From contig CBDFML010000010.1 of assembly GCA_965249645.1 (NCBI GenBank), positions 488,232 to 552,231 on the forward strand: DNA of 64,000 bases, written 5' to 3'. This stretch comes from Alphaproteobacteria bacterium. Lineage in GTDB: Bacteria > Pseudomonadota > Alphaproteobacteria > UBA828 > JAPUJA01. Positions 21,704 to 44,405 of this stretch are shown in pieces (position 1 is the first letter of the stretch; every line of letters starts with the position of its first letter). A model generated the notes under the pieces. The model was not told the DNA's origin. It was given only the letters and a program-made list of their open reading frames with translations, and made no database searches. Made by a program: the position numbers and the translations under genes.

Positions 21704-21711
21704 AATGGAAC

Positions 21712-21756
21712 TGGTGCCGCCGGAGTGGATCGAACACTCGGCCTCGCCCTTACCAA
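21712..21756 (-). repeat. att repeat: displaced 3' fragment of tRNA-Thr (anticodon loop through CCA)
   Basis: TGGTGCCGCCGGAGTGGATCGAACACTCGGCCTCGCCCTTACCAA is identical to 40447..40491. It starts 8 nt after the tenA stop. Confidence 0.9.
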
Positions 21757-21885
21757 CGCTTTTTGTCATTGCTTCGAGGTGAACATCGGTGCACCGTAGT
21801 AAACGAATATATCAATTCGATCAATGAGTTATAGGAAACCGAGTGTCATGGCGGTATAACCCGTTTCAGGGTCTTTCACCGAGCT

Positions 21886-21906
21886 TGCACTTACAGTGCA
21901 CTTACG
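21886..21906 (+). repeat. Tandem 11-mers TGCACTTACA-GTGCACTTACG (candidate arm-type recombinase sites), left arm
   Basis: The 21-nt string is identical to 40382..40402. It lies between the att repeat and the integrase start. Confidence 0.55.
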
Positions 21907-22022
21907 GGCGCGCGAGCCGGGTTCACTTAAGCGCAGAAAGAAGGTGACACATTCAAGCCGTCATCAGCCACAGCCTGATCACGAATCTCAAGCCCGGGGA
22001 TCGTCCCTTCGAGGTTCGAGAC

Positions 22023-23128
22023 ATGCGATTGAAGGGACTGTTGCTGCGCGTCCAACCGAGCGGCGTGATGACCTGGTACGCGGAGTTCGCGCGGGGCAAA
22101 CGCATCAGCTTGGGACGCGTCGATGCGATCAAGCCGGCCGAAGTCCGCGACGAAGCCAAGAAAGTGCTCTCGGAGGCCTACGCGGGCAGGGATCCCATGG
22201 CGAAGCGCCGTGCCGAGCGCGTCGAGTCCTTCCGCTCCTTTATCGATACCATCTATGCACCGTGGGCTGAAGAACACATTCGGACTCACAAGGGAACCCT
22301 GGGGCGCTTGAGAGGGAGATTTCCTGAGCTGCATAAGCAGAAGTTCAAAGACATCACTCCTCTGCTGGTCGAGAAGTGGCGTCTACGGCGGCTCAAGGAA
22401 GGGGCTAAGCCTTCGACGGTCAATCGCGATCTCAATGACCTGAAGTCCTGCCTCCATAAGGCGGTCTCGTGGGGCATCTCGAGGCGTCCCCTCTCCAATT
22501 GGTCCGCGGCATGCGAGTCGATGCCATGCCAGTTGTGCGTTTCCTCAGTGACGACGAAGAGCGTTGTCTACGCGTCGCACTCGATCAGCGTGGAAAGCGC
22601 ATTCGCCAGGAGCGTCGAAATGCGAATGCTTAGCGTCAATGCCGAGGGTACGAGCTTCTGCCCGACCTCGACGAAGCGCCCTTTGTGGATCATCTCGAAC
22701 CGATGGTGATCGTCTCGCTCAACACCGGTATGCGTCGGGGTGAGATCTCAAATCTGAGGTGGGCCGATGTGGATCTTGATCAAGCGCTCATCACCATCCA
22801 TGGACATTCTGCGAAGAGCAATCGGACCCGATATATTCCGCTCAATGACGAGGCCTGCGCCGCCTTGCGGGATTGGCGGGGCGCGCGATTTGATTGGGAT
22901 GGCTACGTCTTCCCAGGCCGCTTCGGCGACCGCCTCGATAATGTGCGGACCGCCTGGGAGAGGGTGCTTGCGGACGCGGGCATCGATCAGTTTCGGTGGC
23001 ACGATTTGCGGCACACATTTGCGTCGCGCCTCGTGATGAAGGGTGTCGATCTCAATACCGTCCGAGAGCTTCTCGGCCACGCGCCTTATCAAATGACGTT
23101 GCGCTACGCCCATCTTGCACCGGAGTAA
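22023..23128 (+). pseudogene. Tyrosine recombinase (phage-type integrase), disrupted
   Basis: N-terminus in ORF 22023..; the frame switches in the G-run near 22471..22476 (..KAVSWG then HLEASPLQLVRGMRVDAMPVVRFLSDDEE..). In-frame TAG at 22631..22633 (RRNANA*RQCRGYELLPDL). The catalytic C-terminus is intact (LNTGMRRGE, WHDLRHTFAS, LGHAPYQMTLRYAH). Confidence 0.85.
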
Positions 23129-23168
23129 AACCCGGGCGATTCCAGCTTGTCGGATTCCGCCCCAGGGG

Positions 23169-23807
23169 CTATTCGGCAGCTTCGGTCTTTCCGCCCGTGA
23201 TCTCGAGGAATTCCTCGGTCGGCTTGGCGATTCCCTGACGGATGAAGCTCTCGCGCATGGGGCTGCCGTTGCCCGCGTGGGCCACCATCTGCTCGGGCGG
23301 TGTCGGCTCGGCTACCTCGGGCCAGATGCCCGGCTGGGGCTCGGCCCCCTCGGCGACAATCGCCATCGGTTCGTCGTCTTCCATCGCGGGCATCACCAGG
23401 ATCTCCATGCAATCCCAGGTGATCTCCAGGGGAATGTTATTGGGGTCGAAGAAATAGATCGACCACATGGTGCCATGATCCACGGCACCGCTCACCTCGA
23501 CGCCCGCCGCCTCGAGCTTGTCCTTGTAGGCGAACAGGTCGGCGCAACTTGCGACCGTGAACGAGACGTGATCGAAGCCCAGCGGCTTCGTCGTCGGCAC
23601 GCCCTGAGACTTGCGCTCCATGGGCTGCGCGCCTTCATACTCGAAGAACGCCACATGGGTGTCGCCGAAACGGAAGAAATAGTGGCGATAGCCGTCATGA
23701 CCGATGCCGGCGGACAACGCCATGTCGAGCAGGTCCCGATAGAACCGGATGGTCTTCTCCATATCCTCGGTGATAAAGGCCAGGTGATTGATGCCCGTGA
23801 GCTTCAT
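23169..23807 (-). CDS. VOC-family (glyoxalase / extradiol dioxygenase fold) protein
   Basis: MKLTGINHLAFITEDMEKTIRFY..GFDHVSFTV. The ATG at 23807 is preceded by AAGGAGA. Confidence 0.75.
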   Translation of the reverse strand: MKLTGINHLAFITEDMEKTIRFYRDLLDMALSAGIGHDGYRHYFFRFGDTHVAFFEYEGAQPMERKSQGVPTTKPLGFDHVSFTVASCADLFAYKDKLEAAGVEVSGAVDHGTMWSIYFFDPNNIPLEITWDCMEILVMPAMEDDEPMAIVAEGAEPQPGIWPEVAEPTPPEQMVAHAGNGSPMRESFIRQGIAKPTEEFLEITGGKTEAAE

Positions 23808-23911
23808 GATTCTCCTTTCCGCACCGCCCGCGTACGGGCTTTGGTCAGCGCGTTCTGTCAGAGTCGCCCGCAGCATACCCGAATCATCGTTCCGGTTATA
23901 GGATAGCGGGG

Positions 23912-24976
23912 ATGATGACTTTCGTTCACGACAACCCGATCGGCCGGGTCGTCTTCGGCGTCGGCCGGCGGACGAGCCTCGGTGAAGAAATCGAGCGGCT
24001 CGACCTCGCGCGGCTGTTGATCTTGTGCAGCCAGAGCCAGCGGGTCCGCGCCGAGGAGGCGGCCCACGCCCTTGGCTCCACGGCGATCGGGGTGTTCGGC
24101 GAAGCGGTCAGCCACATCTCCCCCGTCCTCGCCGCCCGGGCCTCGGCCGAAGCGGCGCACGCCGAGGCTGACGGCCTGGTCGCAATCGGCGGCGGATCGG
24201 CCGTCGGCCTGGCGAAGGCGGTGGCCCGTGAGCGGGGTCTGCCGATTGCTGCCCTGCCGACGACCTACGCAGGCTCGGAGATGACCCCGGTCTGGGGCCT
24301 GACCGAAAAAGGCGTCAAACGCACTGGACGGGATCCGCAGGTGCTGCCGAAGCTGGTGATCTACGACCCCGAGCTTACCCTCGATCTGCCGCCGGGAATC
24401 GCCGCGGCCTCGGGCATGAACGCCCTCGCCCATTGCGTCGAGGCGCTTTATGCGCTGGGCGCCAGCCCGATCGTCTGCCTGATGGCCGAGGAAGGAATCG
24501 GGTCGCTCGCTCGCAGCCTGCCTGGGGTTGTGGCCGCGCCCCGGGATATCGACGCGCGCAGCCAGGCGCTCTACGGCGCCTGGCTGTCGGGCGCGGCGCT
24601 GGGCGGCGTCGCCATGGCGCTGCATCACAAGCTCTGTCATGTGCTGGGCGGGCGATTCAGCCTGCCCCACGCCCAAACCCACGCGGCGGTCCTGCCGCAC
24701 GCCGCCGCCTACAACCGCTCGGCCGCGCCCGACGCCATGGACCGCATCGCTGAGGCGCTGGGCTGCCAAGACGCGCCGGGCGGACTCTTCGAACTGGCTT
24801 GTGCGACAGGCTGTCAGATGGCGCTCGGGGATTTCGGCCTCAAGGAATCCGATCTCGACGAGGCGGCGGACCTCGCGACCCGGGATCCCTACCCCAATCC
24901 GCGGCCTCTCGAGCGCGCTGCCGTGCGCGCATTGCTCGCGGACGCGCTCAACGGCCGGCGGCCACAAACCGCCTGA
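23912..24976 (+). CDS. Maleylacetate reductase-like iron-containing alcohol dehydrogenase
   Basis: 354 aa. GGGSAVGLAKAVA, LPTTYAGSEMTP, MNALAHCVEALY and HHKLCHVLGG match the maleylacetate reductase pattern. Confidence 0.8.
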   Translation: MMTFVHDNPIGRVVFGVGRRTSLGEEIERLDLARLLILCSQSQRVRAEEAAHALGSTAIGVFGEAVSHISPVLAARASAEAAHAEADGLVAIGGGSAVGLAKAVARERGLPIAALPTTYAGSEMTPVWGLTEKGVKRTGRDPQVLPKLVIYDPELTLDLPPGIAAASGMNALAHCVEALYALGASPIVCLMAEEGIGSLARSLPGVVAAPRDIDARSQALYGAWLSGAALGGVAMALHHKLCHVLGGRFSLPHAQTHAAVLPHAAAYNRSAAPDAMDRIAEALGCQDAPGGLFELACATGCQMALGDFGLKESDLDEAADLATRDPYPNPRPLERAAVRALLADALNGRRPQTA

Positions 24977-25489
24977 GCGAGACCGGTACGTGCCTAAATG
25001 GCGCGTTAGAGCATTTTCTGAGAGCACAGCTGCACCATCGTCCGGAAAAAACAACTTCCCGATAAGCGAGCCTTTGCCTCTCGTCGTTAGGACCGCTTGT
25101 GGCTATCAATAGACATCGCAGCAGGGGCACCGGCACCTCCGCTTATGACCCAACTCGGACATTTGCGGCTTCACTAGTCCACGATTGCCAAGAGCTCTGT
25201 TCGCTGAGATCCTGCGTCTGATTAACGGGCTGCGGCCAGCCCCTCTACCGCCATGACAGCGACCGATCCAGTAGCATCCAGGTTGCGCGATAGGACGGGT
25301 GTGTGCGGCGCGGGCCGGGGTACGCTCTCACAGCGCGAAAAAGTCACTGGCCGGGCTTTTGATCGCCAAATCGGCTCGACGAAGAGGGGAGATCGCTATG
25401 CAGACTGCTGGATCAGGACCGGGAGCGCCTTCGACCCCTTATTTGCTACTCTACCAGTGACCGCAAGTGGTCATCCGGGGAATCTCGGC

Positions 25490-26446
25490 TTAGACGAGGG
25501 TCCCGCTCTGGCGCACCGCCCGGCCCGTGCTGTTGACCAGATACACCGCCACCAGCAGAAGGGCCAGCGCCGCCCAGACCCACACCGAATGAACCTCGCC
25601 GAACAGCAGAATGCCCCACCCCACGCCCGTCAGCGTCGCCAGATTATCGACGATCGACAAGTACACGGGCCCCGACAGGCGGATCAGCTCGAGCAGGACG
25701 AACCACATGGCCGCCTGGGAGAGCGTGATGCCGATTAGCGCGCCGTCGCCGGCGTCCAACGGTGCCCCAAACCACCACCAGCTGTCCGTCGCCGCGACGA
25801 TCGGCAGCATCAGGATCGCCGAGGCGCTCAGCGTGCCCGCCGCGAGTTCGAGCGAACCCATCGTCGGAAATCGCAGCCGTGCGATGCCGACCGCGCTCAG
25901 CGAGAATGAGGCTGGCGCCGCCAAGGCGAGCACGACCCAGCCCACCATGTCGCGGCTCGGCAGGCTGGAATCGGGCAGCACGATCAACAGCACGCCGGCG
26001 AAGCCCAGCAAGATGCCGAGCAGCCTGATGAAAAGAAACACTTCGAGCCGCGTGCCGAGTGCGAAGACGTAGGTGAACAGGGGGACCATCGCCAGTGTCA
26101 GACCGACGATCCCCGCGGGCAGCCTAGGCGCGACGAAGGCATAGATTTAATAGGGCACCACCATGCCGAACACCGACATACCAAGATAGATCCAAAGCGC
26201 GCGCCGGTCGCAGCGGGGAAACCGGTGATGGAACGCGCCGTAGGTGGCGAGCAGCAGAAGCGCCGCGCCGGCGCACTGCCAGAAGACATAGGCGATGAAC
26301 GGGATGCCCGCGGTGATCCCGATCCGGTTGAGCGAGAACGACAGGCCGAAAATCGCGGCCATGAAGGCGATGATGCCCAGCGGCGCGAATCGGGACCGCC
26401 GATAGAGCGGTGCGAAACCTGAAGTGTCGATGCCGGGGTCTCCCAT
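25490..26446 (-). pseudogene. EamA/DMT-family permease with an in-frame TAA (26147..26149)
   Basis: ORFs 26147..26497 and 25490..26089 are in the same frame. The read-through gives ..GMVVPY*IYAFVAPRLPAGIVGLTLAMVPLFTY.., i.e. one 10-TM-type DMT protein split in two. Confidence 0.75.
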
Positions 26447-26508
26447 CGCTCGGCTGTAACATTCATCGCCCATAGGAACAATGAGCGATCCGACCAAAGA
26501 GGGTCATC

Positions 26509-27000
26509 ATGGGCGGAAAAACGATGCCGATTACCGGCGGACGCGCGTGCGGCGCGATCCGCGACGAGGCAACCGAGCCGCCACAAGAGGTTGGCTATTG
26601 CCATTGCCGGATGTGCCAGAAAGCTACCGGCAACCTATTCTATCCGTGGGCCATGTTTGGGAGCGACGCATTTCGGATAACAAAGGGCGAGCCGACGTTC
26701 TATAAATCCTCGGCCTTGGCGGAACGCGGCTTCTGTGCGAATTGCGGCACGCAAATGGCTTTTCACTATCTCAGTGACCGCGTGTTCCGGGCGTCTATCG
26801 GTAGCCTAGATCATCCGGAAGATTGGCCGCCGAGTGTCCGTGCTGGCGTTGGAAGCCAGATACCGTGGTTGACCATCCATGACGACCTTCCCCGCATGCG
26901 CACCGAAGAGTGCCCCGAGTTCGCCGCGGCGAAGGCCTCAACGCTCACGGGGGTTTTTAGATCTCCCCAATCGGCCGGTACGTCGATAAGTCGGCCCTGA
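26509..27000 (+). CDS. GFA-family (glutathione-dependent formaldehyde-activating / CENP-V-like) protein; the 3' tail reads into an antisense gene relic
   Basis: GYCHCRMCQKATG and FCANCGTQM zinc motifs. The first motif reads GGRACG where GGCxCG is usual. The last roughly 20 codons are antisense to the binding-protein relic, so the native C-terminus may be lost. Confidence 0.65.
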   Translation: MGGKTMPITGGRACGAIRDEATEPPQEVGYCHCRMCQKATGNLFYPWAMFGSDAFRITKGEPTFYKSSALAERGFCANCGTQMAFHYLSDRVFRASIGSLDHPEDWPPSVRAGVGSQIPWLTIHDDLPRMRTEECPEFAAAKASTLTGVFRSPQSAGTSISRP

Positions 27001-27473
27001 CGGTAAGTATCCGGGGTCGCGAAGACTTCGCCTCATTTCCTCAAAGCCCACCAATGCGGAAGTCCGGGGCAAAGCGGTTCCGCATATCCGGGATAGACCC
27101 ATCCTCCGGACCCCTCCATGCCGGTCAACCCGAGCACTTCGAGTGTCCCGTCGTCGACGCCCTTAAAGTACCCCTCGCCGATGGTCACTTCCCATATCTC
27201 CAACGCCGCCGTCAGATCGCCCTCGCCTATGGCTGTGAGCTGGGGAATGTAACCGGCTGTAATGTATTCGATGTTGTAGCCCATCTTCGTGAGCAGCTTG
27301 CCGGCGATTGTCGTGATGATGATCTGGCTGCTCCAGTCATTCATCGCGAGTTTGATCGCATCGCCGGATTCTGGAATGTCGGTAGCCTGCGCTGCCGCCA
27401 CGCCAACGGCGCTCGTCGCCAACGCAAAACACAGACAGGCCGACGCAATCGAACGCCGAATGACGCTCTTCAT
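26930..27473 (-). pseudogene. Truncated paralog of the adjacent betaine-type substrate-binding protein (in-frame TGA at 27033..27035, C-terminal half deleted)
   Basis: MKSVIRR..IPESGDAIKLAMNDWSSQIIITTIAGKLLTKMGYNIEYITAGYIPQLTAIGEGDLTAALEIWE parallels the 27851..28840 product. After the TGA the frame continues GEVFATPDTYRQGRLIDVPADWGDLKT, then similarity ends. Confidence 0.8.
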
Positions 27474-27850
27474 TTCGACCTCCCTATTAATTGATTTGTT
27501 CTTCCAATCCACCCACTCGGCGGCCGCTGCCTGACGCACCGGCCGGTGGATTACACAAAGCGTTACCCCACGGCGATAATTTGGGTTGCGCGTGCTTGCA
27601 ACTACAAGACGCTTCCTGACGCGCCCTCTCTGTGCAAAAGCTCGCCCTATCAAGTATCAATGTCGGTGATTGTCTGTTCGTCGCTCTCAGGCAAGCTAAT
27701 GTTCAGATCCATACCTCACTGCGCTCTCCATAGCGCCGCCCATTGCCTTTAGCGGTCGCTATGGTGAGCCAAATTGCATTGCTACGGCCCGAAATTTCGT
27801 GATCCAGACCTCAGGATTTAATCTTGGCACAACATCGCGCGGCGCATGAA

Positions 27851-28840
27851 CTACAGGGCCGCCTCATCGATCCAGACGCTCCAATTCGCCTCGTTGTCCG
27901 CAATCCACTGGTCGGTCAAATCATCCAGGCTCTCGCCGCCCAGTTCAAAGGCATGCATCATCGCGATGTCGTCCTCGGTCGAGATCTGGAACGCCTTGAG
28001 GAACCGGTAGGCTCCGGGCCACTTGTCCTTCATCCCGGGCCAAGCCACCTTTGTGATCGGCAATGCTGCTTCCGTGCAGTCGTAAGCGAGGTCGGGATTG
28101 GGACCCCAGGAGGGATCTTCCCAGCACGCGTCTTCGTATGCAGGCTCATCGAGGTGTTGCAGATCGTATTCGGCAAAGACCCAGTGCGGCCACCACAGGT
28201 AGATCAACAAGGGCGTCTGGGACTGGAAGGCTGCCTTGACTTCGGCCATCATCGCGCCTTCGCTTCCTCCCTTAACGACCTGAAAGTCTATTTCATAGGC
28301 CGCAACGCGTTCGACGGTTTTGAAGTCACCCCAATCCGACGGTTGATCGATGACACGGCCTTGCGGGTAGGTATCGGGCGTGGCGAACACTTCGGCACAG
28401 TCTTGCAGAGCCCGAATGTCGGGAAGCCCGGGGCAAAGCTCCTCGGCGAATCCCGGATAAACCCAGCCGGCCGCCCCTTGCATGCCGGTCAACCCGAGTA
28501 TTTCCAGCTTGCCTTCTTCAATGCCCTTAAAGTACCCCTCGCCGGCGCTGACCTCCCACATTTCCAGAGTGGCCGTCAGATCACCGAAGCCGATTGCCGT
28601 CAGCTGGGGAATATAGCCCGCTGTGACGTACTCGACGTTGTAGCCCATTTTCGTAAGCAACTTTCCTGCAATCGTCGTTATAAGGTTCTGACTGCTCCAG
28701 TCATTCATGGCGAGAATTACGGGGTCGTCTGACTCCGGAATGTCGCCGGCCTGTGCGGGCGCCACACCGGCAACGGCAGTGGCCATCAATAGCGAAAACC
28801 CAACGGCTGCGATCGAATTCCTGCGGAAACGATTTTTCAT
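27851..28840 (-). CDS. ABC substrate-binding protein, glycine betaine/proline betaine (ProX/OpuAC) family
   Basis: 329 aa with a signal peptide (AVGFSLLMATAVAGVAPAQA) and a ProX-like body (MNDWSSQ.., LLIYLWWPHWV). Confidence 0.85.
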   Translation of the reverse strand: MKNRFRRNSIAAVGFSLLMATAVAGVAPAQAGDIPESDDPVILAMNDWSSQNLITTIAGKLLTKMGYNVEYVTAGYIPQLTAIGFGDLTATLEMWEVSAGEGYFKGIEEGKLEILGLTGMQGAAGWVYPGFAEELCPGLPDIRALQDCAEVFATPDTYPQGRVIDQPSDWGDFKTVERVAAYEIDFQVVKGGSEGAMMAEVKAAFQSQTPLLIYLWWPHWVFAEYDLQHLDEPAYEDACWEDPSWGPNPDLAYDCTEAALPITKVAWPGMKDKWPGAYRFLKAFQISTEDDIAMMHAFELGGESLDDLTDQWIADNEANWSVWIDEAAL

Positions 28841-29085
28841 CTCATGCTCCCGAATAGTTTCGTTCGGAAAGCCGACGTTTAGCGACGTACCCGATGAATT
28901 AGTACTTCGGGTGCTCGCCCCGCTCGCCAGTGTCCGCTGAATCGGATTGCAGCAGGAATTGTGTAGCGTTACCCCAAGAGGACGTGGCGAAATACGTGGA
29001 AGCGATGGCGGTCGTCTCCGCCAGAAGCATCATGTCAGACTCTCCCTCGAGAGGCTGCGCGGTTCCCTGAGCTCGTCTGATTCCA

Positions 29086-29130
29086 AGAGCCGAGCTTACC
29101 CTTTAATTGTTTGAGCCGAGCTTACCCTTT
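29086..29130. repeat. Two tandem copies of GAGCCGAGCTTACCCTTTA (period 26) in a divergent promoter region
   Basis: Exact 19-mers at 29086..29104 and 29112..29130, between the binding-protein gene (-) and the SnoaL-like gene (+). Confidence 0.8.
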
Positions 29131-29314
29131 ATTCTTTTTTTTGAAAGTATAGACCTGAATTCTTGATGGGCGCAAGAATGATTCATCGAATTCGGGATCG
29201 AACCCGGATTGGAGGGGGAGATCAGCTTGGCTCAGACCGCTGCCACCCCGAATTTTGACAACCGCGCCGCGATGGGCTGGCGCTGCTCCTGGCTCGTCCA
29301 GCGGGCCTCGATCC

Positions 29315-29731: not shown

Positions 29732-29744
29732 GACCCGCAGCGAG

Positions 29745-30827: not shown

Positions 30828-30998
30828 GCGCCGCTATTGTCGGGGGCCCTGAGGCAGGGTGGCGCGCCCGATCGGGGAATTCTTGGAAAATATCGTGGCG
30901 GGCACCGTCTCATCCGTCATCATTGAGAATGGGGCAACGCCCTAGGATAAACAGTGCGGTAAGATAGCCTTAAAATATGCCGAGAAAGGAGGCGTCCG

Positions 30999-32294: not shown

Positions 32295-32372
32295 ACCGGA
32301 TGGCTGCTCCGGTTTTTATGAACTGGATTCTGCCACGCCAAGCAATGACTGGAAGAATGTGTATCCCAGTCT

Positions 32373-33542
32373 GTGACAGTGGGGATTGATCTCAAGGTGG
32401 CAACGGGAAATCGAGTTTCGGGAAACGCTCCGACCGATCTCTTGCCGGTGTCCGTGCTGACGGGTTTTCTGGGAAGCGGCAAGACGACAATATTGTCCCG
32501 ACTTCTCCATGATCCGGGCATGGCCAATACCGCGATTATCGTCAACGAATTCGGCGAGGTTGGACTTGATCACCTTATCGTGGAGAAGGGCGAGGAGGAC
32601 GTCGTGCTCCTCGACGCGGGCTGTCTCTGCTGCGCTGTAAGCGATTCTCTCAGCGATACGCTGACCAATCTCTTTTTCCGCCGTGTGCGCGGCGATGTTC
32701 CCTCCTTCGAGCGCGTAATAATCGAAACGAGCGGCCTCGCTGACCCGGCTCCGATCCTCCACGCTCTGGTAATGGATCAGTTCGTGTCATCCCACTTTTT
32801 CCTGGATGGAATAATTGCGACCGTGGATGGCGTCCACGGATTCAACCAGTTGGATGACCACGAGGAGGCCGTCAAGCAGGCGGCCTTCGCCGAGCGTATC
32901 GTCATTACCAAGTCCGATCTCGTTGCACTCAATGACATCGCGGCCTTGCGCGAACGATTGAACGGAATGAACGATGGCGCGAGGATTCTAGAGGCCGCGA
33001 AGGGACACGTGGAACCCGCTTGCATATTGAACGTCGGTCTTTTCGACCTGAGCAAGAAATCCGCCGACGTGCAGCGATGGTTGCGTCAAGAAGCCGTTGG
33101 GGGCCATGGCCACGACACTCGAGATGCCGCTCACGGAAACTCCGAGGAACTGAGTGAGCATGCGGGATCGCGGAACCACAAGTCCGGGCGTCACAACGAG
33201 AAGATTCAAACCTTCTGCGTCGACTTCGATTTCCTCGTGACCTGGGCCAGCTACGCCGACTGGGTCGCTTCAATGGAAAGGATTCCGAGTGAAAATCTCC
33301 TGCGCGTTAAGGGTCTGATCGGCATCGCAGGCAGCGACCGACCCTACGTCATCCAGGGGGTACGGCACATCTTCAGCCCGCCGATCAGGCTGAAGAGCTG
33401 GCCCCAGGACATTCACGAATCTCGCCTAATCTTCATTACCTACGATTTGGATCGTTCTCTCGTTGAGGCAACGCTGGGAGCGCTCAGGGCGCCCGAAGGA
33501 TTACAGGGCACCGGCATGCTCGAAGACGCCCTTAAAATATGA
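32373..33542 (+). CDS. COG0523-family GTPase metallochaperone (CobW/ZigA-like)
   Basis: GFLGSGKTT Walker A, GCLCCAV metal motif, ETSGLADP, a His-rich linker (GGHGHDTRDAAHG..) and the CobW_C-like end. Confidence 0.88.
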   Translation: MTVGIDLKVATGNRVSGNAPTDLLPVSVLTGFLGSGKTTILSRLLHDPGMANTAIIVNEFGEVGLDHLIVEKGEEDVVLLDAGCLCCAVSDSLSDTLTNLFFRRVRGDVPSFERVIIETSGLADPAPILHALVMDQFVSSHFFLDGIIATVDGVHGFNQLDDHEEAVKQAAFAERIVITKSDLVALNDIAALRERLNGMNDGARILEAAKGHVEPACILNVGLFDLSKKSADVQRWLRQEAVGGHGHDTRDAAHGNSEELSEHAGSRNHKSGRHNEKIQTFCVDFDFLVTWASYADWVASMERIPSENLLRVKGLIGIAGSDRPYVIQGVRHIFSPPIRLKSWPQDIHESRLIFITYDLDRSLVEATLGALRAPEGLQGTGMLEDALKI

Positions 33543-33733
33543 GGAGAGCCGCTTCGAACGCACCGGTCGGATTCGCTAGTGGTGCGCGGACCGGTCGGTC
33601 CCGGTCACCCATTCCCGTGGCCTTGCTCGAGTAGGCGGCCGGTGCCGTGTATGCCTGAGCTCGGTGATCGCTCTGTTGAATCGCCGAGCGTGCAAAGGAA
33701 AAGTAGTTTACTGATCGAGTGAAGGAGGTTTCG

Positions 33734-35098
33734 ATGAATTTCGATTGTATCGTCGAAAACGGCACCGTCGTCTTTCCTGAGCGCGGAGAGGTCGAGGCCG
33801 ACATCGCCATCCGCGACGGCAAGTTTGCTGGTATCCTTCGACCGGGCGAAGAGGCGCCGGGCACTGCCGAAAGAATCGACGTGGCGGGTAAGCACGTATT
33901 TCCCGGCATCATCGACGCCCATGTCCATTTTGGCTTCGCCGAGCCCCTGACCGAATACAGTACCGAGACGATGACGGCGGCGATCGGCGGGGTGACGACC
34001 ATACTCGCATATTTTCTCAACAATGAATCTTACAGGGACGTCTTCGCGGATCAGCTTGGCGAAGTGGAATCCCGTGCCTACGTCGATTTCGGCTTCCACT
34101 TCTCTACGGCGAAGGACATCCACTTGGATGAGCTCGAAAGCTACGTGAAGGAGTGCAACGTCACCTCGTTCAAATATTTCATGAACTTCAAGGGCGAAGC
34201 AGGGAGGTATCTAGGCCTTGACGGCACCGACGACGGCTACATGTATGACCTGCTACAGGAAGCAGCGCGCATAAAGGACATCGTCATTGTCATTCATCCC
34301 GAGAACATCGAGCTCGTCAATCGCTTCCGGCAGCGTTTCATGGAAGAGGGCCGCGAGGGCTTGCGGGCATATAGCGAATCAAAACCGGACTTTACGGAAA
34401 CCGAGAACACCATGCGGGCCATGGCATTCGCGGAACATCTAGGCGCGCGCATTTATTTCCCCCACGTGAGCTGCTCCTCAAGCCTAAGGGAGGTTCAGCG
34501 TTTTCGCGAACGCTATGAACATGTGCACCTTGAGACCTGCCCCCACTATCTGACCCACACCATGGACGCGGACTTGGGGAGCATCGGCAAGGCTAACCCG
34601 CCGTTGCGCACCCAGCAGGATGTCGACGCCCTTTGGGAGGGCTTGGCTGATGGATCGATCGATGTGGTCGCTTCGGATCACGTTCCCCGCAAAAAAGCGA
34701 CCAAGGAAAAATCGATCTGGCAGGCTTCCCAGGGTTTCCCCGGGACGGCAATAATACTTCCGGTTCTTCTGAGCGAGGGCTACCACAAGGAGCGCCTCAC
34801 TTTGCAACGCATCGCCCAGCTCGTGACGGCCCGGCCCGCCGAGATTTTCGGCATTGAGAAGAGGAAGGGTCGCATTGCCGAGGGGGCCGATGCGGACCTG
34901 ACCATCGTCGATCTCGACCTTGAGCGCAAAGTGCACGCCGAGGAATTGGCGTCCTATTCGGACTACACGCCGTATGAAGGGTGGACCCTTAAGGGCTGGC
35001 CTGTCCTCACCATGGTCCGTGGCGACGTGGTTATGCGGGACGGCAAAATCGTTGGGAAAAAAGGCTACGGACAATATTTGCGCCGTCCTTTAACGTAA
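33734..35098 (+). CDS. Cyclic amidohydrolase (dihydropyrimidinase / hydantoinase / allantoinase family)
   Basis: MNFDCIVENG..PGIIDAHVHF, FKYFM (carboxylated-Lys position), HPEN and ASDHVP. The ATG at 33734 follows GAAGGAGG; the GTG at 33719 in the track overlaps that RBS. Confidence 0.85.
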   Translation: MNFDCIVENGTVVFPERGEVEADIAIRDGKFAGILRPGEEAPGTAERIDVAGKHVFPGIIDAHVHFGFAEPLTEYSTETMTAAIGGVTTILAYFLNNESYRDVFADQLGEVESRAYVDFGFHFSTAKDIHLDELESYVKECNVTSFKYFMNFKGEAGRYLGLDGTDDGYMYDLLQEAARIKDIVIVIHPENIELVNRFRQRFMEEGREGLRAYSESKPDFTETENTMRAMAFAEHLGARIYFPHVSCSSSLREVQRFRERYEHVHLETCPHYLTHTMDADLGSIGKANPPLRTQQDVDALWEGLADGSIDVVASDHVPRKKATKEKSIWQASQGFPGTAIILPVLLSEGYHKERLTLQRIAQLVTARPAEIFGIEKRKGRIAEGADADLTIVDLDLERKVHAEELASYSDYTPYEGWTLKGWPVLTMVRGDVVMRDGKIVGKKGYGQYLRRPLT

Positions 35099-35159
35099 CG
35101 GTGAATCTCGAGGAACCACGAGCGGATCGCTCAATTAAGCGAAAGCAAGAGAGCCCATC

Positions 35160-36053
35160 GTGGCACAGAAAAGCCGCACTCTGAGCACTGCCTTTAAGGA
35201 GACCGTCCAACGTCGGCAGGCGCTGATCGTCCCCGGGGCGCCAAATGCCTTGACGGCCCGGCTGATCGAAGATCTGGGGTTCGAGGCTGTTTATATAACC
35301 GGCGCCGGCGTGACCAACATGCATCTGGGGGTGCCGGACATCGGATTGATCACACTGACCGAGCTCGCTGATCACGTCGGGGCAATCCACGATGTGGTTT
35401 CCCTGCCGCTGATCGTCGACGCCGACACGGGCTTCGGCAATCCCGTTAACGTGACTCGCACGGTAAAGGTTTTGGAACGCAACGGTGCCAACGGGATCCA
35501 GCTGGAAGACCAGGCGTTTCCAAAACGCTGCGGGCACTTTTTGGGGAAAAACGTCATTCCCGTCGAGGAGATGGTTCAAAAACTCAAGGCTGCGACGGAC
35601 ACCCGGCGGGATCCGGATTTGCAAATCATCGCTCGTACCGATGCCCTGGAGAAGCTTGGGATCAATGCCGCATTAGATCGCGCTGCGGCATATGTGGAAG
35701 CGGGGGCGGACATTACCTTCGTCGACGCGCCGGAAAATATCGGTGAGTTGAGAGCCATAGCAAGCGCTCTGAAAGTCCCGCAGGTGGCGAATATGGTCGT
35801 GGGCGGAAAAACGCCGCTGGTCGGCCGGTCCGAGCTCAGCGAGATGGGTTTCGCCGTCGTGCTCTATGCGAACGCGGCCTTGCAGAGCGCCCTATACGGC
35901 ATGCAGGCTGTGCTATCGGAGCTTTACAAAGAGGGGTCTCTCGAGGCCGTCCGTGAACTGCTTACTCCGTTCGGTGAGCGCCAGCGGCTTGTCGGCAATT
36001 CCGAATTCGATGCTTTGGAGGAGAAGTACCAGACGGAACCTGGGGCGAAATAG
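35160..36053 (+). CDS. Isocitrate lyase/PEP mutase superfamily lyase (2-methylisocitrate lyase / dimethylmalate lyase-like)
   Basis: PGAPNALTARLIE, IVDADTGFG, IQLEDQAFPKRCGH and ARTDA. Confidence 0.82.
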   Translation: MAQKSRTLSTAFKETVQRRQALIVPGAPNALTARLIEDLGFEAVYITGAGVTNMHLGVPDIGLITLTELADHVGAIHDVVSLPLIVDADTGFGNPVNVTRTVKVLERNGANGIQLEDQAFPKRCGHFLGKNVIPVEEMVQKLKAATDTRRDPDLQIIARTDALEKLGINAALDRAAAYVEAGADITFVDAPENIGELRAIASALKVPQVANMVVGGKTPLVGRSELSEMGFAVVLYANAALQSALYGMQAVLSELYKEGSLEAVRELLTPFGERQRLVGNSEFDALEEKYQTEPGAK

Positions 36054-36136
36054 TCACGCTCCAGTATGGAATTAATGTGGTTGGCCCCGAAGGGGGCGTA
36101 TGAAGCGGGCCCTGAATAACCAGCCAGGAGACTTTC

Positions 36137-36832
36137 ATGCGACCATGGGATGGGATTATCAGCGAGGAAGAGCAAGAAGCCTATCGTGCCGTCGGATTCG
36201 GCAAGACCTCGGGTATCGGCAGCTGTCCCGCCTTGCTCATCATCGACGTTCAGTACCGGACGGTTGGCACCAAACCGCAGCCCTTTTGGGAGGCCATCAA
36301 GGAGTTTCCCACTAGTTGCGGCGATGTGGCGTGGGAAGCCGTCGAAAAAATCAAACCTCTTCTAGCGACGTTCCGGGAGCAGGGCTGGCCGGTGCTCTAT
36401 CCCCATGTGGCGCCAAAGCAAAGCCACGATGCCGGACGGCTGGCCGAAAAAGTGCCCGCGATTATGACGGTCTCGAAGAAGGGTTATGAATTCGTGGCCG
36501 ACATCGCGCCGGTTGAGGGTGAAATCCTCTTGCCCAAGAAGCATCCAAGTGCGTTCTTCGGTACGCCGTTGGCAAGTCACCTGATCGACCTGGGAGTCGA
36601 CACGTTGTTCATTACCGGCTGCACCACGAGCGGCTGCGTTCGCAGTACGGTCGTTGATGCCTTCTCCTATAACTTCAAATTGGTTGTGCCGGAGGATTCC
36701 GTCTACGACCGCAGCAAGGTTTCCCACGCGGTCAATCTGTTCGATATGTCGGAAAAATACGCCGATGTCATGCCGCTGACGGACGCACTGTCTCTCTTGG
36801 CAAAATTGCCAGCAAAGAATACGGCCGGCTGA
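36137..36832 (+). CDS. Isochorismatase-family cysteine hydrolase (N-carbamoylsarcosine amidase / RutB / nicotinamidase-like)
   Basis: LLIIDVQY (Asp), LPKKHPSAFF (Lys) and ITGCTTSGCVRSTVVDA (Cys): the full D-K-C triad pattern. Confidence 0.8.
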   Translation: MRPWDGIISEEEQEAYRAVGFGKTSGIGSCPALLIIDVQYRTVGTKPQPFWEAIKEFPTSCGDVAWEAVEKIKPLLATFREQGWPVLYPHVAPKQSHDAGRLAEKVPAIMTVSKKGYEFVADIAPVEGEILLPKKHPSAFFGTPLASHLIDLGVDTLFITGCTTSGCVRSTVVDAFSYNFKLVVPEDSVYDRSKVSHAVNLFDMSEKYADVMPLTDALSLLAKLPAKNTAG

Positions 36833-36849
36833 ATTGCCATGCTTAGGGG

Positions 36850-37614
36850 CTAATCGACCCAGAGTCCGCCGTTTATGTCCATGATTTCACCGGTTATGTA
36901 GTCCGACCCTTCGGCGGCAAGGAAAAGAATTGCTTCGGCCACGTCTTCGACCGTGCCCATGCGGCCAACGGGGATGAGTTGTTTCAGGCTATCGGGGAAC
37001 GTTGTCGTCATCTCAGTGGCGATCGGTCCAGGAGCCACGGCATTCACGGTTATCCCGTCTGCGGCTAGTTCCTTCGCCAAGTACAGTGTCATCGCATGAA
37101 CGCCGGCCTTCGAGACCCCGTAGGCTATGTTGGCGGCTTGCTCCTGTTCCTCCCGATCCAGCCACGGACGCGCGTTGCCTCCACTTTTCCCTGTGACCGA
37201 TCCGATGTTGAGGATCCTTCCATAATGTTGGGCACGCATCGGCGGAATTACCGACCGACAGCACAGGAAGGTGCCCTTCAGGTTGACGGCAAGCACTCGG
37301 TCCCATTCCTCTTCCGAGAGATGTTCGGCCGCGCCGTGCGACACGACGCCGGCAACGTTCACCAGGACATCGACACGGCCGAATTTATCCAGCACTTCGC
37401 CGACCGCCGCTTGAACCTGACTGCTGTCGGTAACGTCCACTTCGATGCTTGCGGCCCGCACGCCCGCTGCTCGAAGGTCTGTGGCGAAAGACTTCGTCGA
37501 TTGCTTGTCGATCAGCGATAACGACGCGTCTTCACGGGCAAAAGCGCGCGCCGTGGCAGCACCTATTGCACCGGCTGCCCCAGTAACAATTACGACCCGG
37601 TTACTGAACCCCAT
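36850..37614 (-). CDS. Short-chain dehydrogenase/reductase
   Basis: VVIVTGAAGAIGAA, NVAGV and YGVSKAG motifs. Confidence 0.88.
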   Translation of the reverse strand: MGFSNRVVIVTGAAGAIGAATARAFAREDASLSLIDKQSTKSFATDLRAAGVRAASIEVDVTDSSQVQAAVGEVLDKFGRVDVLVNVAGVVSHGAAEHLSEEEWDRVLAVNLKGTFLCCRSVIPPMRAQHYGRILNIGSVTGKSGGNARPWLDREEQEQAANIAYGVSKAGVHAMTLYLAKELAADGITVNAVAPGPIATEMTTTFPDSLKQLIPVGRMGTVEDVAEAILFLAAEGSDYITGEIMDINGGLWVD

Positions 37615-37769
37615 CTCAATTCCTCATCTGGGCATCGAAGATTCTCCGCAGCGCAGTCAGTCCCCGTGGAGAGGGAGGCACCTTTCGTCGGTCAATGAGA
37701 GAGCTATCCCAAGAGATGCCGTCTTCCGCTGACAGGCATTGTCGCATGATTCGCTTCTTGGGCGATGCT

Positions 37770-37922
37770 ATGTCTCAATTCAAGCCCGGCGCTCTTGCTA
37801 CGACCACGGCAGTAGAGGAGCTTTTGCCGGTCATCGTAGGTCGTGAGAGTCTATTGCCGGTAAGCGACGACGGTCGGATAATCGGTCAAATCACACCGTC
37901 TTGCATGATTAAGCCTCTTTCA
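37770..37922 (+). pseudogene. Relic of the C-terminal CBS region of a ProV-type ABC ATPase
   Basis: ..TTTAVEELLPVIVGRESLLPVSDDGRIIGQITPSCMIKPL resembles a single CBS motif, exactly where proV would precede proW. No Walker/ABC part remains. Confidence 0.45.
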
Positions 37923-38016
37923 CGTCATCGAAGTGGAGCTTGCCCAGATGGACGACATTGGCACTCGCGTGACGACAGCCGATGGCTAGTCGAGACCATC
38001 TGCGACCGAGGTTACG

Positions 38017-40107
38017 TTGATGCTGACCAGCGGCCGCTTTACCCGACGCATCGAACGCGAGTTCTATCCCTGGATCCTTGTCGGCCTGGGCGTATTCGTG
38101 TGCTTCCTGCTTCGAGATGAAGTCAGTTGGCTACTCACCTTTCCGAACGGTATCCAACTTCCCATCTCCGACTGGATCAATGTCTTTATGGATTGGTTCG
38201 TCGCAACATTTCGCTGGTTGTTTCGCGCAATTTCATGGACCCTCGGTTGGCCGATGACCTGGCTTCAAGGCCTGTTCCACTGGTTGCCCTGGCCCGCCAC
38301 GATCACGATGCTGGTTGCGTTCGCCTACGCGGCCAAGGGCTGGAAGCTTGCGTTGTTTACGGCCTGCGCGCTGCTCTACATGGTCGTCATTGGATACTGG
38401 GAAGAAAGTATGAGGACGCTGGCATTGGTCGGCGTTTCAGTGCCTCTCTCGGGCCTGAGTGGAGGCGCAGTGGGGCTACTCGCGTTTCGATACCGCCTTG
38501 CCCGCAAAATCATCGAACCCCTTCTCGACCTTATGCAAGTCGTCCCAACCTTCGTCTATCTGATTCCCGCGTTGCTGCTATTTGGCTTTGGTCCCGTGGT
38601 CGGAATTATTGCCAGCGCTATTTACGCGGCTCCGCCAATGGCCCGCAACATGATATTGGGATTGAGCCGCGTGCCAAAGGACGCCGTAGAATCGGGTCAA
38701 ATGTCGGGCGCGACGAACCTGCAGTTGCTCTGGTGGATCCAGATCCCTTCGGCGATGCCAACTATCATAATTGGCATCAACCAGACCATCATGGCCGCGT
38801 TCGCCATGGTAATCATCGCGGCGGTCATCGGCGGTTCGGCGGATATCGGCTGGGAAGTCCTGAGCTCTATGCGCCGGGCGCGTTTCGCCGAGAGCTTGCT
38901 CTCGGGCGTCGTTATCACGTTGATGGCGATGATCATGGATCGAGCCAGCCGTGCTTTTGCCGAACAGCGGGGTAAATTGCGCCTCAAGACCGACTCGTTC
39001 TGGCAACGCCATCGAAATCTCTGTATTTCGATTGCTGTTGTCGGGGGCATGATCGTTCTCGGCAAGTTCATCGATCCGATGCGCGCCTGGCCCGAATCCC
39101 TGGTGTTCTTTCCGACCGAACAGATAAATAACGGGCTCCGATTTCTTATCGAAAATTACAGCTTCGTCTTCAACACCATCAAAAAGTGGTCTCTGTTCTA
39201 TTTCATGATGCCCATACGCTTGGGACTTGAAGGATCGGTTCGGCCACATTCTTGGGGATTTGAACTCACCCTGCCAATCAGTCTGGCTTACGCCGGCGTG
39301 ATAACGACGTTCACTCTTGTCGGGCTGAAATTCTACGGATGGCGGGTTTGCGTCAGCATCGCGGTCATTGGTGCGATGCTCTATTTCGGGATCACAGCCA
39401 CTCCTTGGCCGGCCTTTATCGCCGTCGTCACGCTCATCGCCTGGCAGACTGGTGGCTGGAAGCTCGGCGTCGGAAGCCTTCTGGGGTTGGCCTTCATGTT
39501 GCTCACGGGAGTGTGGGAACAGGCGATGCTTTCGGTCTATCTGTGCGGCGCGGCCGTGTTCCTTTCGTTCGTCGTGGGCTGCTCGCTTGGCGTCTGGGCT
39601 TCGCACAACGATAGCGTCTCGGCCTTCCTGCGGCCGATCAACGACACATTTCAGTCGATGCCACTTTTCGTCTTCCTGATTCCCGTCGTCATGTTCTTCA
39701 AGATCGGTGATTTCACCGCATTGCTGGCGATCGCCGCCTACGCCATTGTCCCGGGAATTCGCTATACAGAGCACGGCATCCGAAATGTCCAGCCCGATAT
39801 TGTTGAAGCGGCCCGGGCACTGGGATGCACCAAGCGCCAGATTTTCTGGCAAGTCGAGCTCCCGCTTGCCCTCCCGGAAATAATGCTGGGTCTGAACCAA
39901 ATCGTCATGTTCGCTCTCGCCATGCTCGTTATCACCTCTCTCGTGGGCACCAAAGGGTTGGGCATGTTGGTCTACGTGGCGCTCAGTTCGGCGGATGTTG
40001 GCAAGGGTTTCGTCGCGGGGCTATCCATGGCGTTGATCGCCATCATTATCGATCGCATCATTCAATCCTGGAGCAATAAGAAGAAAGTCGAACTCGGGCT
40101 GGCCTAG
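38017..40107 (+). CDS. ABC permease, ProW-type, tandem-fused (two BPD_transp_1 modules)
   Basis: 696 aa. Two repeats of the EAA-loop region (ESGQMSGATNLQLLWWIQIPSAMP and EAARALGCTKRQIFWQVELPLALP). Confidence 0.85.
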   Translation: MMLTSGRFTRRIEREFYPWILVGLGVFVCFLLRDEVSWLLTFPNGIQLPISDWINVFMDWFVATFRWLFRAISWTLGWPMTWLQGLFHWLPWPATITMLVAFAYAAKGWKLALFTACALLYMVVIGYWEESMRTLALVGVSVPLSGLSGGAVGLLAFRYRLARKIIEPLLDLMQVVPTFVYLIPALLLFGFGPVVGIIASAIYAAPPMARNMILGLSRVPKDAVESGQMSGATNLQLLWWIQIPSAMPTIIIGINQTIMAAFAMVIIAAVIGGSADIGWEVLSSMRRARFAESLLSGVVITLMAMIMDRASRAFAEQRGKLRLKTDSFWQRHRNLCISIAVVGGMIVLGKFIDPMRAWPESLVFFPTEQINNGLRFLIENYSFVFNTIKKWSLFYFMMPIRLGLEGSVRPHSWGFELTLPISLAYAGVITTFTLVGLKFYGWRVCVSIAVIGAMLYFGITATPWPAFIAVVTLIAWQTGGWKLGVGSLLGLAFMLLTGVWEQAMLSVYLCGAAVFLSFVVGCSLGVWASHNDSVSAFLRPINDTFQSMPLFVFLIPVVMFFKIGDFTALLAIAAYAIVPGIRYTEHGIRNVQPDIVEAARALGCTKRQIFWQVELPLALPEIMLGLNQIVMFALAMLVITSLVGTKGLGMLVYVALSSADVGKGFVAGLSMALIAIIIDRIIQSWSNKKKVELGLA

Positions 40108-40117
40108 CGTGCTGGCT

Positions 40118-40380
40118 ACGGCTTTAACGGCGGATCGTTCCATCGTCAAGGCTCACCGCGCGGCAGCCGGCGCAAAAGGGGGGAACTGGCGCAGGATATC
40201 GGCCGCTCACGCGGCGGCCGCACAAGCAAGGTTCACGCCGTAGTCGATGAACACGGTCGTCCCCGGCGCTTTGTCATCACCGGCGGTCAGGTTCATGACG
40301 GTCAAGTCCTGCCGGATCTTCTCGAAAGCGCCGCTTGCCGTCGTCGCCGACAAGGCTTACGGCTCACGCGCCATCCGCCA
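40118..40380 (+). pseudogene. Internal fragment of an IS5-family DDE transposase with frameshifts
   Basis: Pieced from three frames: ADRSIVKAHRAAAGAKGG / LAQDIGRSRGGRTSKVHAVVDEHGRPRRFVITGGQVHDGQVLPDLLES / AVVADKAYGSRAIRQ. There are no ends and no start. Confidence 0.7.
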
Positions 40381-40381
40381 G

Positions 40382-40402
40382 TGCACTTACAGTGCACTTA
40401 CG
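40382..40402 (+). repeat. Tandem 11-mers TGCACTTACA-GTGCACTTACG, right arm
   Basis: Identical to 21886..21906. Lies 45 bp from the tRNA 3' end. Confidence 0.55.
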
Positions 40403-40446
40403 AGCCGCTTGTAGGAATTGGGAATTTAGCTAAGTCATTGAAAGTA

Positions 40447-40491
40447 TGGTGCCGCCGGAGTGGATCGAACACTCGGCCTCGCCCTTACCAA
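40447..40491 (-). repeat. att repeat within the intact tRNA-Thr
   Basis: Identical to 21712..21756. Confidence 0.9.
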
Positions 40492-40521
40492 GGGCGCGCT
40501 CTACCACTGAGCTACGGCGGC
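40447..40521 (-). tRNA. tRNA-Thr (anticodon GGU)
   Basis: The hand-folded 75-nt cloverleaf is GCCGCCG-TA-GCTC-AGTGGTA-GAGC-G-CGCCC-TTGGTAA-GGGCG-AGGCC-GAGTG-TTCGATC-CACTC-CGGCGGC-A-CCA. Confidence 0.92.
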
Positions 40522-42382: not shown

Positions 42383-42443
42383 AGGATGCGCGCGAGACCG
42401 GCCAAACGAGCATTGACCGTGCCTCGTTCGACGATGAAGGCCG

Positions 42444-44400: not shown

Positions 44401-44405
44401 CTTCA

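Follow-up and report, generated by a model that had tools for sequence, protein, structure and literature searches.

A fossil island in the tRNA-Thr(GGU) gene of an alphaproteobacterium, with a broken P4-like integrase and a mosaic interior

P4-like integrases, which contain an Arm-DNA-bind_3 (DUF4102) domain, drive small elements, such as satellite phage P4, that consist of the integrase gene int, a gene for an AlpA-type HTH_17 protein and a gene for a primase or Rep. In the P4-type islands of E. coli the integrase gene is found beside the intact tRNA gene, and it is known that a single tRNA gene can accumulate several elements, in tandem or one after another. The Islander collection, in which tandem arrays are resolved, assigns 2083 of its 3919 islands to the anticodon-centred 'A' attP class, and 3760 of the 3919 come with a 3' fragment of the tRNA gene (Hudson, Lau and Williams, 2015; PMC4383910). 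Here we describe a stretch of 64,000 nucleotides from an alphaproteobacterium (contig CBDFML010000010.1 of assembly GCA_965249645.1; hereafter the window), in which a tRNA-Thr(GGU) gene upstream of murA and a displaced copy of its 3' part enclose an island of 18.7 kb. This island belongs, as a fossil, to the anticodon-loop class of tDNA islands and has every structural hallmark of these but an intact integrase; no new type of system is involved. The reading that we favour, with a probability of about 0.82, is that an element with a P4-like integrase was integrated in tRNA-Thr(GGU) and has since been immobilised, and that its interior is a secondary patchwork.

Transfer RNA genes were called with ARAGORN, RNA families with Rfam and protein domains with Pfam and NCBIfam, and a repeat finder was run on the 64 kb. 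The intact tRNA-Thr(GGU) gene lies on the minus strand at 40447-40521 (ARAGORN; Rfam, 70.4 bits), and its 3' 45 nt (40447-40491) recur exactly, as a direct repeat, in an orphan 3' fragment at 21712-21756, also on the minus strand, where ARAGORN calls no tRNA. The repeat comprises positions 31-75 of the tRNA on the tRNA strand; it opens where the anticodon loop (TTGGTAA) does, at its first base, and closes with CCA. Its 24-nt core, with three or fewer mismatches allowed, is found at two sites only, both of them the repeat copies (0.00 expected from shuffles). The orphan fragment, which begins 8 nt after the tenA stop at 21703, is the core of attR, and the copy within the intact gene is the core of attL, supplied by the element. 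All of these positions had been given by an earlier reading of the window (the original prediction) and are confirmed by ARAGORN, Rfam and the repeat finder. Rfam finds two tRNAs in the window, the second being tRNA-Phe at 47151-47226 (also called by ARAGORN), and no other structured RNA, including a TPP riboswitch upstream of tenA or in the island.

The locus was compared with the islands of Islander (PMC4383910), which it resembles in having an intact tRNA gene, a displaced 3' fragment in the same orientation and a block of identity that starts at the anticodon loop. The full-length tRNA gene is matched by its cognate end fragment, which lies downstream (both are on the minus strand, the fragment at the lower coordinates); an open reading frame (ORF) with PF00589 is found inside; the length of 18.7 kb falls within the range of 2-200 kb; and the fragment is clear of Pfam domains, the TenA domain ending at residue 236 of 242. 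Unlike the islands of that collection, which are putatively active and have an intact integrase, the island in the window has intact att cores and arm repeats together with an integrase that carries four lesions, and its backbone is missing.

Read-level evidence was taken from Logan contigs, which derive from a k=31 graph. A search of sequencing runs found the window almost exactly in three runs (X1, X2 and X3) of one sample, the source sample. In these runs the 45-mer forms its own unitig at about twice the depth of its flanks (14 versus 5.8 and 8.2 in X3; 20 in X2) and is joined to four different flanks. Because it does so in short-read assemblies, the repeat is not an assembly duplication, and this alternative, which the original prediction had named, is excluded. 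Sequencing depths of the island and its flanks are similar in the contigs of the source sample.

Inside the 45-nt repeats lies a second direct repeat of 24 nt, of which 23 are identical, at 21886-21909 and 40382-40405. It is built of tandem TGCACTTACAG/TGCACTTAC(G/A) units and lies 65 nt before the integrase start on one side and 65 nt before the tRNA 3' end on the other. With one mismatch allowed, the 11-mer of the arms is found in the 64 kb at the two island ends only (0.33 expected). In the P' arm of the former attP (21757-21950, plus strand) the tandem reads TGCACTTACAG/TGCACTTACGG at 21886-21907 and is followed by a degenerate third copy, TTCACTTAA, at 21922-21932, and in the P arm (40380-40446, plus strand) it reads TGCACTTACAG/TGCACTTACGA at 40382-40403, 41 nt from the core. 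These tandem TGCACTTAC repeats on both arms are likely to be binding sites for the N-terminal arm-binding domain of the integrase.

The integrase gene (21951-23125, plus strand) is a pseudogene of the P4-like type. Its Arm-DNA-bind_3 and Int_N domains are found in the ORF at 22023-22709 and its catalytic Phage_integrase domain (PF00589; E = 8e-35) in the ORF at 22685-23128. The read-through of the gene was aligned with 22 homologs of about 403-405 residues that are 57-62% identical to it, and four lesions were found. ATT stands at 21951 where the homologs start with ATG; the frame shifts after 22470; the codon of an invariant Trp is changed from TGG to TAG at 22631; and the protein ends after HLAPE (23125), its last ~12 codons gone, where all homologs go on with HKAAAVARLV, as does a homologous contig of another run (X24) that continues past the position of 23125. 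The frameshift is polymorphic: a contig of X3 has an extra G that restores the frame, and those of X1 and X2 agree with the window. The catalytic residues R263, H352, R355, H378 and Y387, all in invariant columns of the alignment, are retained. Hence the tyrosine-recombinase gene that had been read at the start of the island is genuine and P4-like, but it is multiply broken, a point on which the original prediction had hedged.

Thousands of uncharacterised homologs are 57-62% identical to the window integrase, and their surroundings were examined in six loci of the closest homologs and then in 80 more that were obtained by a metagenome scan with the integrase alignment, giving 84 loci in all. 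None of the six closest loci has an intact tRNA beside int; in each of them a minus-oriented orphan 3' end of a CAT-anticodon tRNA lies 235-240 nt upstream of the int start, the corresponding distance in the window being 239 nt. Just upstream of int, these loci have two or three copies of GCACTTA(C), and GCACTTA repeats are found in the same place as in the window in all seven closest independent homolog loci (L091, L092, L094, L095 and L097-L099). Among the 84 loci, a minus-oriented orphan tRNA 3' end lies 170-270 nt upstream of int in about 36 and an intact tRNA in 2. Two loci contain whole islands: L131 has a 45-nt repeat in tRNA-Ala(CGC) that starts at the anticodon loop and encloses 7.7 kb, and L156 has a 47-nt repeat of the same kind in tRNA-Arg(CCG), a length of 9.1 kb and, as its second repeat, TGGACTTAA units in tandem both close to int and close to the tRNA. 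Arms homologous to the P arm of the window adjoin tRNA genes in L099, L156 and one contig of run X21; in L099, TGCACTTACA repeats lie 53-70 nt from the tRNA and are followed by ...CATTGAAAAA, as in the window. Since the orphan fragment at -239 and the repeats on both arms recur in the family, we take the two ends in the window, on the strength of these sequence comparisons, to be authentic attR and attL of this integrase clade. L099 also has a mix of ends, with an orphan CAT-anticodon tRNA fragment upstream of int (2169-3584) and family-type arm repeats by an intact tRNA-Arg(CCG) at the far end (9360-9511), which suggests tandem or recombinant elements of one clade.

Intact members of the family consist of int, a small ORF, an HTH_17 gene and then a Rep, AAA_25 or D5_N gene, as seen in L094, L095, L131 and L156. 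They thus resemble P4-type elements in having a two-domain integrase, HTH_17 and D5_N, AAA_25 or Rep. Unlike in P4-type islands, the integrase gene of this clade adjoins the displaced fragment, its transcription runs into the island, crossover takes place in the anticodon loop, and the copy in the window has no HTH_17 or replication gene: no HTH_17, Rep, AAA_25 or D5_N domain is found in any ORF between 23126 and 40446.

The site of integration was compared in relatives at two distances. A MurA scan of species-representative genomes, in which the best match was 71% identical (Magnetovibrio, Kiloniellaceae, Thalassospira and others), gave 80 loci, and closer relatives were taken from a large protein collection, namely a JGI contig (3300072015; gene table only) and loci L183 and L184. 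The tRNA-Thr(GGU) gene lies on the minus strand directly upstream of murA in about 35 of 50 loci, with hisG, hisD and often tRNA-Phe downstream, and this side, tRNA-Thr/murA/hisGD/tRNA-Phe, is conserved across Rhodospirillales. Beyond the 3' end of the tRNA synteny breaks and no gene is common to those loci; tenA and the cargo are absent from all 80 species-representative loci. In L183 and L184 (MurA 90% and core DNA 82% identical) this position is held by an intact prophage that runs from capsid to lysozyme and a GTA-type holin (69-9205 in L183), with the end of the holin gene about 140 nt from tRNA-Thr. The last 111 residues of the holin and about 85 nt past its stop match the window from 20284 to about 20700 (84% amino acid identity), where the homology ends; L183 reaches its tRNA about 60 nt later. 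Given this match to an intact prophage at the same site, the window ORF at 19741-20616 (plus strand), in which an N-terminal Terminase_6N fragment is fused to the last 111 residues of a GTA_holin_3TM holin, is a prophage stump, a terminase-holin fusion that resulted from a large deletion. An HTH and peptidase-S24 repressor gene at 13119-13736 may be a second phage relic.

What the window has in addition to L183 is the stretch from about 20700 to 40446, consisting of the tenA cassette, the orphan fragment and the island. In the JGI contig (MurA 93% identical) the gene order is a PAS sensor of 1243 aa, GNAT, two small ORFs, a 500-aa ORF, an Mrr-like gene, a different integrase of 328 aa on the tRNA strand and murA, and its PAS-GNAT pair matches 14623-18848 of the window. 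Because relatives hold a prophage or another island beside tRNA-Thr and have no tenA there, the stretch between GNAT and tRNA-Thr is an integration hotspot with a different occupant in each genome, and tenA itself is accessory. The ancestral tenA/tRNA-Thr/murA junction that had been predicted was not seen in any relative examined, L183, L184 and the JGI contig included; found instead, in relatives without tenA at this place, was a prophage holin or another integrase next to tRNA-Thr and murA. The tenA gene lies within the variable region, yet it may have been the neighbour at the time of integration. As in accretion hotspots, three related genomes have three occupants at tRNA-Thr(GGU), that is, a prophage, an island with Mrr and another integrase, and the present island, and the window keeps the prophage stump outside the island. 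Unlike in a clean tandem array, there is only one orphan fragment, and neither the older prophage stump nor the tenA cassette comes with its own repeat or integrase.

Other integrase families are also found at tRNA-Thr(GGU)/murA. In a metagenome-assembled genome (MAG) of Magnetovibrio (L004, 2-607) an integrase gene is convergent on the tRNA, and the JGI relative (contig of P0264) has its 328-residue integrase with the Mrr-like gene. An apparent empty-site joint from 21751 to 40486 in the runs X4, X21 and X23 was rejected as an artefact, as contigs of other tRNAs start at the repeat, with mismatches.

The tenA cassette (20700-21703, plus strand) lies outside the repeats and consists of the gene itself (20975-21703; Pfam TENA_THI-4) and an upstream region that is conserved from 20856. 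An exact look-up of TenA gave no match, and its closest homologs, 78, 75 and 65% identical, are all at other genomic locations. Next to the first two, tenA is divergent from adjacent SnoaL and Zn-dependent alcohol dehydrogenase (Zn-ADH) genes; the third lies among insertion sequence (IS) elements, with Zn-ADH a few kb off in some contigs. Those SnoaL and Zn-ADH genes are 68% and 75-77% identical, respectively, to the genes at 29255-30827 of the window, inside the island. In the nearest TenA lineages (L081-L086), tenA, SnoaL and Zn-ADH form a contiguous, divergent module, which the attR site divides in the window. The tenA gene shares with L086 a conserved upstream stretch of about 115 nt, and upstream of SnoaL, at 29105-29147, this motif has a second, weakly matching copy (E = 0.026). 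A tandem 26-nt repeat lies in the same region (29087-29138), and contigs of X21 and X23 have a 29-nt insertion after 29077 that reads like a further copy, so that the copy number appears to be variable. Two explanations of the split module were rejected: no single inversion gives the present layout, and a tandem array with an older element of the family that carried tenA would have left a second tRNA fragment or an arm repeat, neither of which is found left of 21712.

The interior of the island was mapped with contigs of four other runs (X21, X23, X24 and X29) that were aligned to the window; cluster members gave loci L177, L178 and L180-L182. The contigs match the window at about 94% over 23120-25009, about 98% over 25459-26936 and 96-98% over 27785-40123, whereas none of the four runs has an integrase or tenA contig at 80% identity or more, and their best murA-hisD contig is 86% identical, with a tRNA-murA spacer at 80%. 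Segment A (23120-25009) contains a VOC/glyoxalase-family gene (23169-23876, minus strand) and a gene of the Fe-dependent alcohol dehydrogenase family (23912-24976, plus strand), as assigned by Pfam. L177 and L178 match it at 93.6%; there, on an 827-kb contig, it is flanked by arginase on one side and by FecR/TetR/GcrA/SecB genes on the other. Its left boundary is exactly 23120 in all four runs, which is inside the terminator of the VOC gene and coincides with the truncation of the integrase. It is followed by the remnant of an IS4-like 3' end (25185-25370, plus strand), with the last 23 transposase codons and the element end, as recognised by tblastn and blastn against the IS4-like element of L177; depth over this remnant is raised in all runs. 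Segment B (25459-26936) contains, according to Pfam, an EamA transporter fragment (25490-26089, minus strand), an unknown ORF and a gene of the GFA family (26509-27000) that is truncated at its 3' end, at 26936. The contigs that cover it in the four runs stop at both boundaries and continue into unlike sequence. The stretch at 26937-27784 is specific to the window, being essentially uncovered in X21, X23 and X24 and covered in part in X29 (27531-27723); it contains, on the minus strand, a degenerate fragment of an OpuAC paralog (27033-27653) that spans Pfam profile positions 2-96 only and is 72-73% identical to the intact OpuAC gene.

Segment C (27785-40123) comprises that OpuAC gene (27851-28840, minus strand), which encodes a binding protein of the ProX/OpuAC type, a seven-gene operon (29255-36832, plus strand), an SDR gene (36850-37614, minus strand) and a fused ABC permease gene (38017-40107, plus strand). 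The operon encodes, in order, SnoaL, Zn-ADH, an M24 hydrolase with a creatinase-type N-terminal domain, a COG0523 GTPase, a dihydropyrimidinase/hydantoinase-like cyclic amidohydrolase, a PrpB-like lyase and an isochorismatase-like amidase (Pfam, NCBIfam). The operon may encode a pathway for breaking down an N-heterocycle or a hydantoin-like compound. All NCBIfam matches stay below the curated cut-offs of their models, and specific names such as 'maleylacetate reductase' and 'ring-cleavage dioxygenase' are family-level guesses. The segment is 96.7-97.4% identical to L180-L182 and is found on a 336-kb contig of an assembly that also holds segment A; its flanks there are a nest of IS4-like, IS3, IS256 and IS21 elements on one side and an ABC ATPase gene on the other. 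At the right boundary, 40123, the relatives continue with other sequence, and the boundaries are the same in X21-X29. In the sequencing-run index, runs from seven other labelled organisms, spread over many studies, match the words of the operon region (29255-36832) at 0.53-0.56, and those runs are absent for the murA region. At least segment C looks as if it was recently exchanged with related bacteria.

The junctions cut the 3' end of int, the GFA gene, the OpuAC paralog and the IS4-like end. Rather than being one coherent payload, the cargo consists of three or more segments, unlinked in relatives, that form a mosaic with IS scars. The original prediction of metabolic rather than phage cargo thus stands in so far as no phage structural, packaging or lysis gene was found by a Pfam scan of the ORFs between the repeats, but the notion of a single payload does not; similarly, its betaine-type ABC genes are present as the OpuAC binding protein and the fused permease, but the ATPase gene that adjoins segment C in the relatives is lacking. 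The transposase fragment that it had placed at the right end is a genuine internal fragment of an IS5-family (DDE_Tnp_1) transposase in the window (40140-40379, plus strand; two frameshifts), but the contigs of the source organism in X1-X3 join 40139 to 40380 by 18 nt (ATTTCTTAAAGCGAGAAA) that resemble natural arm sequence in X21. Because the 18-nt version is found in all three runs and the sole coverage of the fragment comes from a 136x contig of a different, full-length IS, the fragment is either a minority variant or an assembly error, and its presence in the source organism is doubtful. A composite transposon was looked for between the repeats: there are no paired IS ends and no target-site duplications, only the IS4-like stump and the doubtful IS5 fragment. 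IS involvement in building the mosaic is nevertheless plausible.

Based on these results, we propose the following order of events. An element with a P4-like tyrosine integrase would have entered the tRNA-Thr(GGU) gene upstream of murA, when the gene (attB) and an attP with the tRNA's last 45 nt recombined at the anticodon loop. The intact tRNA would thereby have been restored on the murA side and the original 3' part displaced to 21712-21756, where it became the orphan fragment beside the integrase. The hotspot between the GNAT gene and the tRNA may already have held the prophage, now the terminase-holin stump, and the tenA cassette. The element would then have been immobilised as the integrase lost its start codon and 3' end and gained a stop and the still-polymorphic frameshift, and the partner genes of the family (the small ORF, the excisionase-like HTH_17 gene and the replication gene) would have been lost. 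The metabolic segments would have been joined at abrupt junctions, most likely by deletion or by IS-mediated or illegitimate recombination. Integrase-mediated insertion at the anticodon loop, as originally predicted, is supported by the integrase remnant at the family distance, the arm repeats, the whole islands of L131 and L156 and the break of synteny.

Several observations weigh against this reading. No empty site and no close strain without the island was found, and the closest relatives available for comparison have 82-86% core identity; there being no before-and-after pair, insertion is inferred from structure and from these relatives. The tenA gene lies just outside the island and its partners SnoaL and Zn-ADH inside, which the simple model leaves as a coincidence. 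The contigs of segments A and C are not proven to come from the same organisms as the 86% murA contig, depth ratios varying between runs, and a marine metagenome relative (X4), about 92-98% identical, carries pieces of both tenA and the cargo. Finally, the island cannot be told from its flanks by composition: tetranucleotide correlations are r = 0.90-0.93 between island and flanks and 0.84-0.92 between the flanks, and GC is 0.59 in the island and 0.57-0.61 in the flanks, with only an IS21 element deviating. The original prediction had held that such a composition, together with a block shared by all relatives with no empty site, would speak against an island; the former was found, and the latter was not.

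The alternative that survives best, though we consider it rather unlikely, is a single integration of the whole 18.7 kb, in which the element, probably larger, already carried segments A, B and C and afterwards suffered two internal deletions, one that took the 3' end of int and the backbone up to the VOC terminator, and the other between the permease and the P arm. Both junctions could indeed be simple deletions, and in members of the family cargo is found in the interval from the replication genes to the P arm (L156). A contig of X21, with a depth like that of segment C and of the murA-like contig (9.3-10.6), has the arm repeats by the 3' end of tRNA-Thr, so a relative also has a family element in tRNA-Thr. 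However, segments A and C are on different contigs in relatives, A among core-type genes (GcrA, SecB, Tim44) and C by the IS nest, with no arm repeats or integrase within 7-10 kb of either. Moreover, the interior has further junctions at the IS4-like end, the cut GFA gene, the stump of the OpuAC paralog and the missing ATPase, and intact relatives of the element are only 7.7-9.1 kb long. An integrated element whose interior was assembled afterwards is therefore preferred.

Much less probable is that the island can still be moved in trans by an excisionase and a sibling integrase whose genes lie in another part of the genome. All 45 bases of the core repeats agree, as do 23 of 24 in the arm repeats, and integrases of the family are abundant in the same samples. 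The junctions expected after excision are …GAGAATTAAAATGGAAC followed by the whole tRNA for attB, and …TTGAAAGTA, the 45-mer and CGCTTTTTGTC… for attP; the k=31 contig graph fits the integrated form as well as an excised circle plus empty site, which it cannot separate. On the other hand, the depth of the island equals that of its flanks, without the excess that replicating circles would give, and the closest homologs target a CAT-anticodon tRNA, not tRNA-Thr. Copies of the cargo elsewhere end at 23120 and 40123, short of the att sites, which shows that the observed spread did not use them. That the repeat is an artefact or a local duplication within ordinary chromosome is hardly credible, for although the composition and the functional fit of the cargo with flanking genes (the tenA module; the sarcosine oxidase cluster at 4510-9764) would agree with it, the double-depth unitig with its four flanks in independent short-read assemblies, the start of the repeat exactly at the anticodon loop, as in L131, the integrase pseudogene and both arm repeats in family-typical positions, and the prophage or other island that tRNA-Thr abuts in relatives all contradict it.

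Further features of the window lie outside the island. A complete IS21-family element (10267-12662; IstA at 10378-11877, IstB to about 12635) has a GC of 0.67 and deviant tetranucleotides; it is about 90% identical in DNA to the IS21 copies beside segment C in L180 and L181, and its proteins share 90-93% identity with those of a copy from a MAG of an unrelated alphaproteobacterium (L014). The gene of a PAS-rich sensor histidine kinase (14623-18354) is split in two ORFs by an in-frame stop at 16204-16206, where the closest relative has a single ORF of 1243 residues. At 3181-9764 a glutamine-synthetase-like gene is followed by the genes for the beta, delta, alpha and gamma subunits of sarcosine oxidase (4510-9764), and this cluster for the catabolism of methylated amines could work at a later stage than the creatinase-like and amidase genes of the island. 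On the murA side, 52019-58448 (about 6.4 kb, including ABC-transporter genes) is absent from L183, which is otherwise collinear with 40446-52018 and 58449-58941 at 82-89%, and constitutes a second strain-variable block.

The observations may also be joined in a wider and more tentative reading, which we regard as possible though not probable. Segment C shows 97% identity between genomes that are only 82-86% identical in their core genes. The dead shell would serve as a neutral landing pad for catabolic modules that are swapped among related marine Rhodospirillales, the tenA/SnoaL-ADH module would be in the course of being reunited across attR, and the fixed geometry of the ends would mark a large, uncharacterised clade of integrases whose arm sites co-vary with them. 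In that geometry, about 235-240 nt separate the tRNA fragment from the int start, and tandem GCACTTAC-type repeats stand at 45-77 nt both from that start and from the 3' end of the tRNA.

As a worked example, the locus shows that a short exact tRNA repeat rightly flags a site of integration, but that to regard the island as cargo delivered by its integrase is too simple. In annotation, the conserved core (tRNA-Thr, murA, hisGD and tRNA-Phe) is to be set apart from a variable region of about 21.6 kb with several pseudogenes and a binding-protein transporter without ATPase. The interest of the locus is modest and lies in the history of the hotspot, the sharing of cargo across species and the unexplained split of the tenA module. 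For this clade of anticodon-loop integrases, which is populous but uncharacterised, the locus and its relatives yield a consistent geometry together with a candidate motif for the arm sites.

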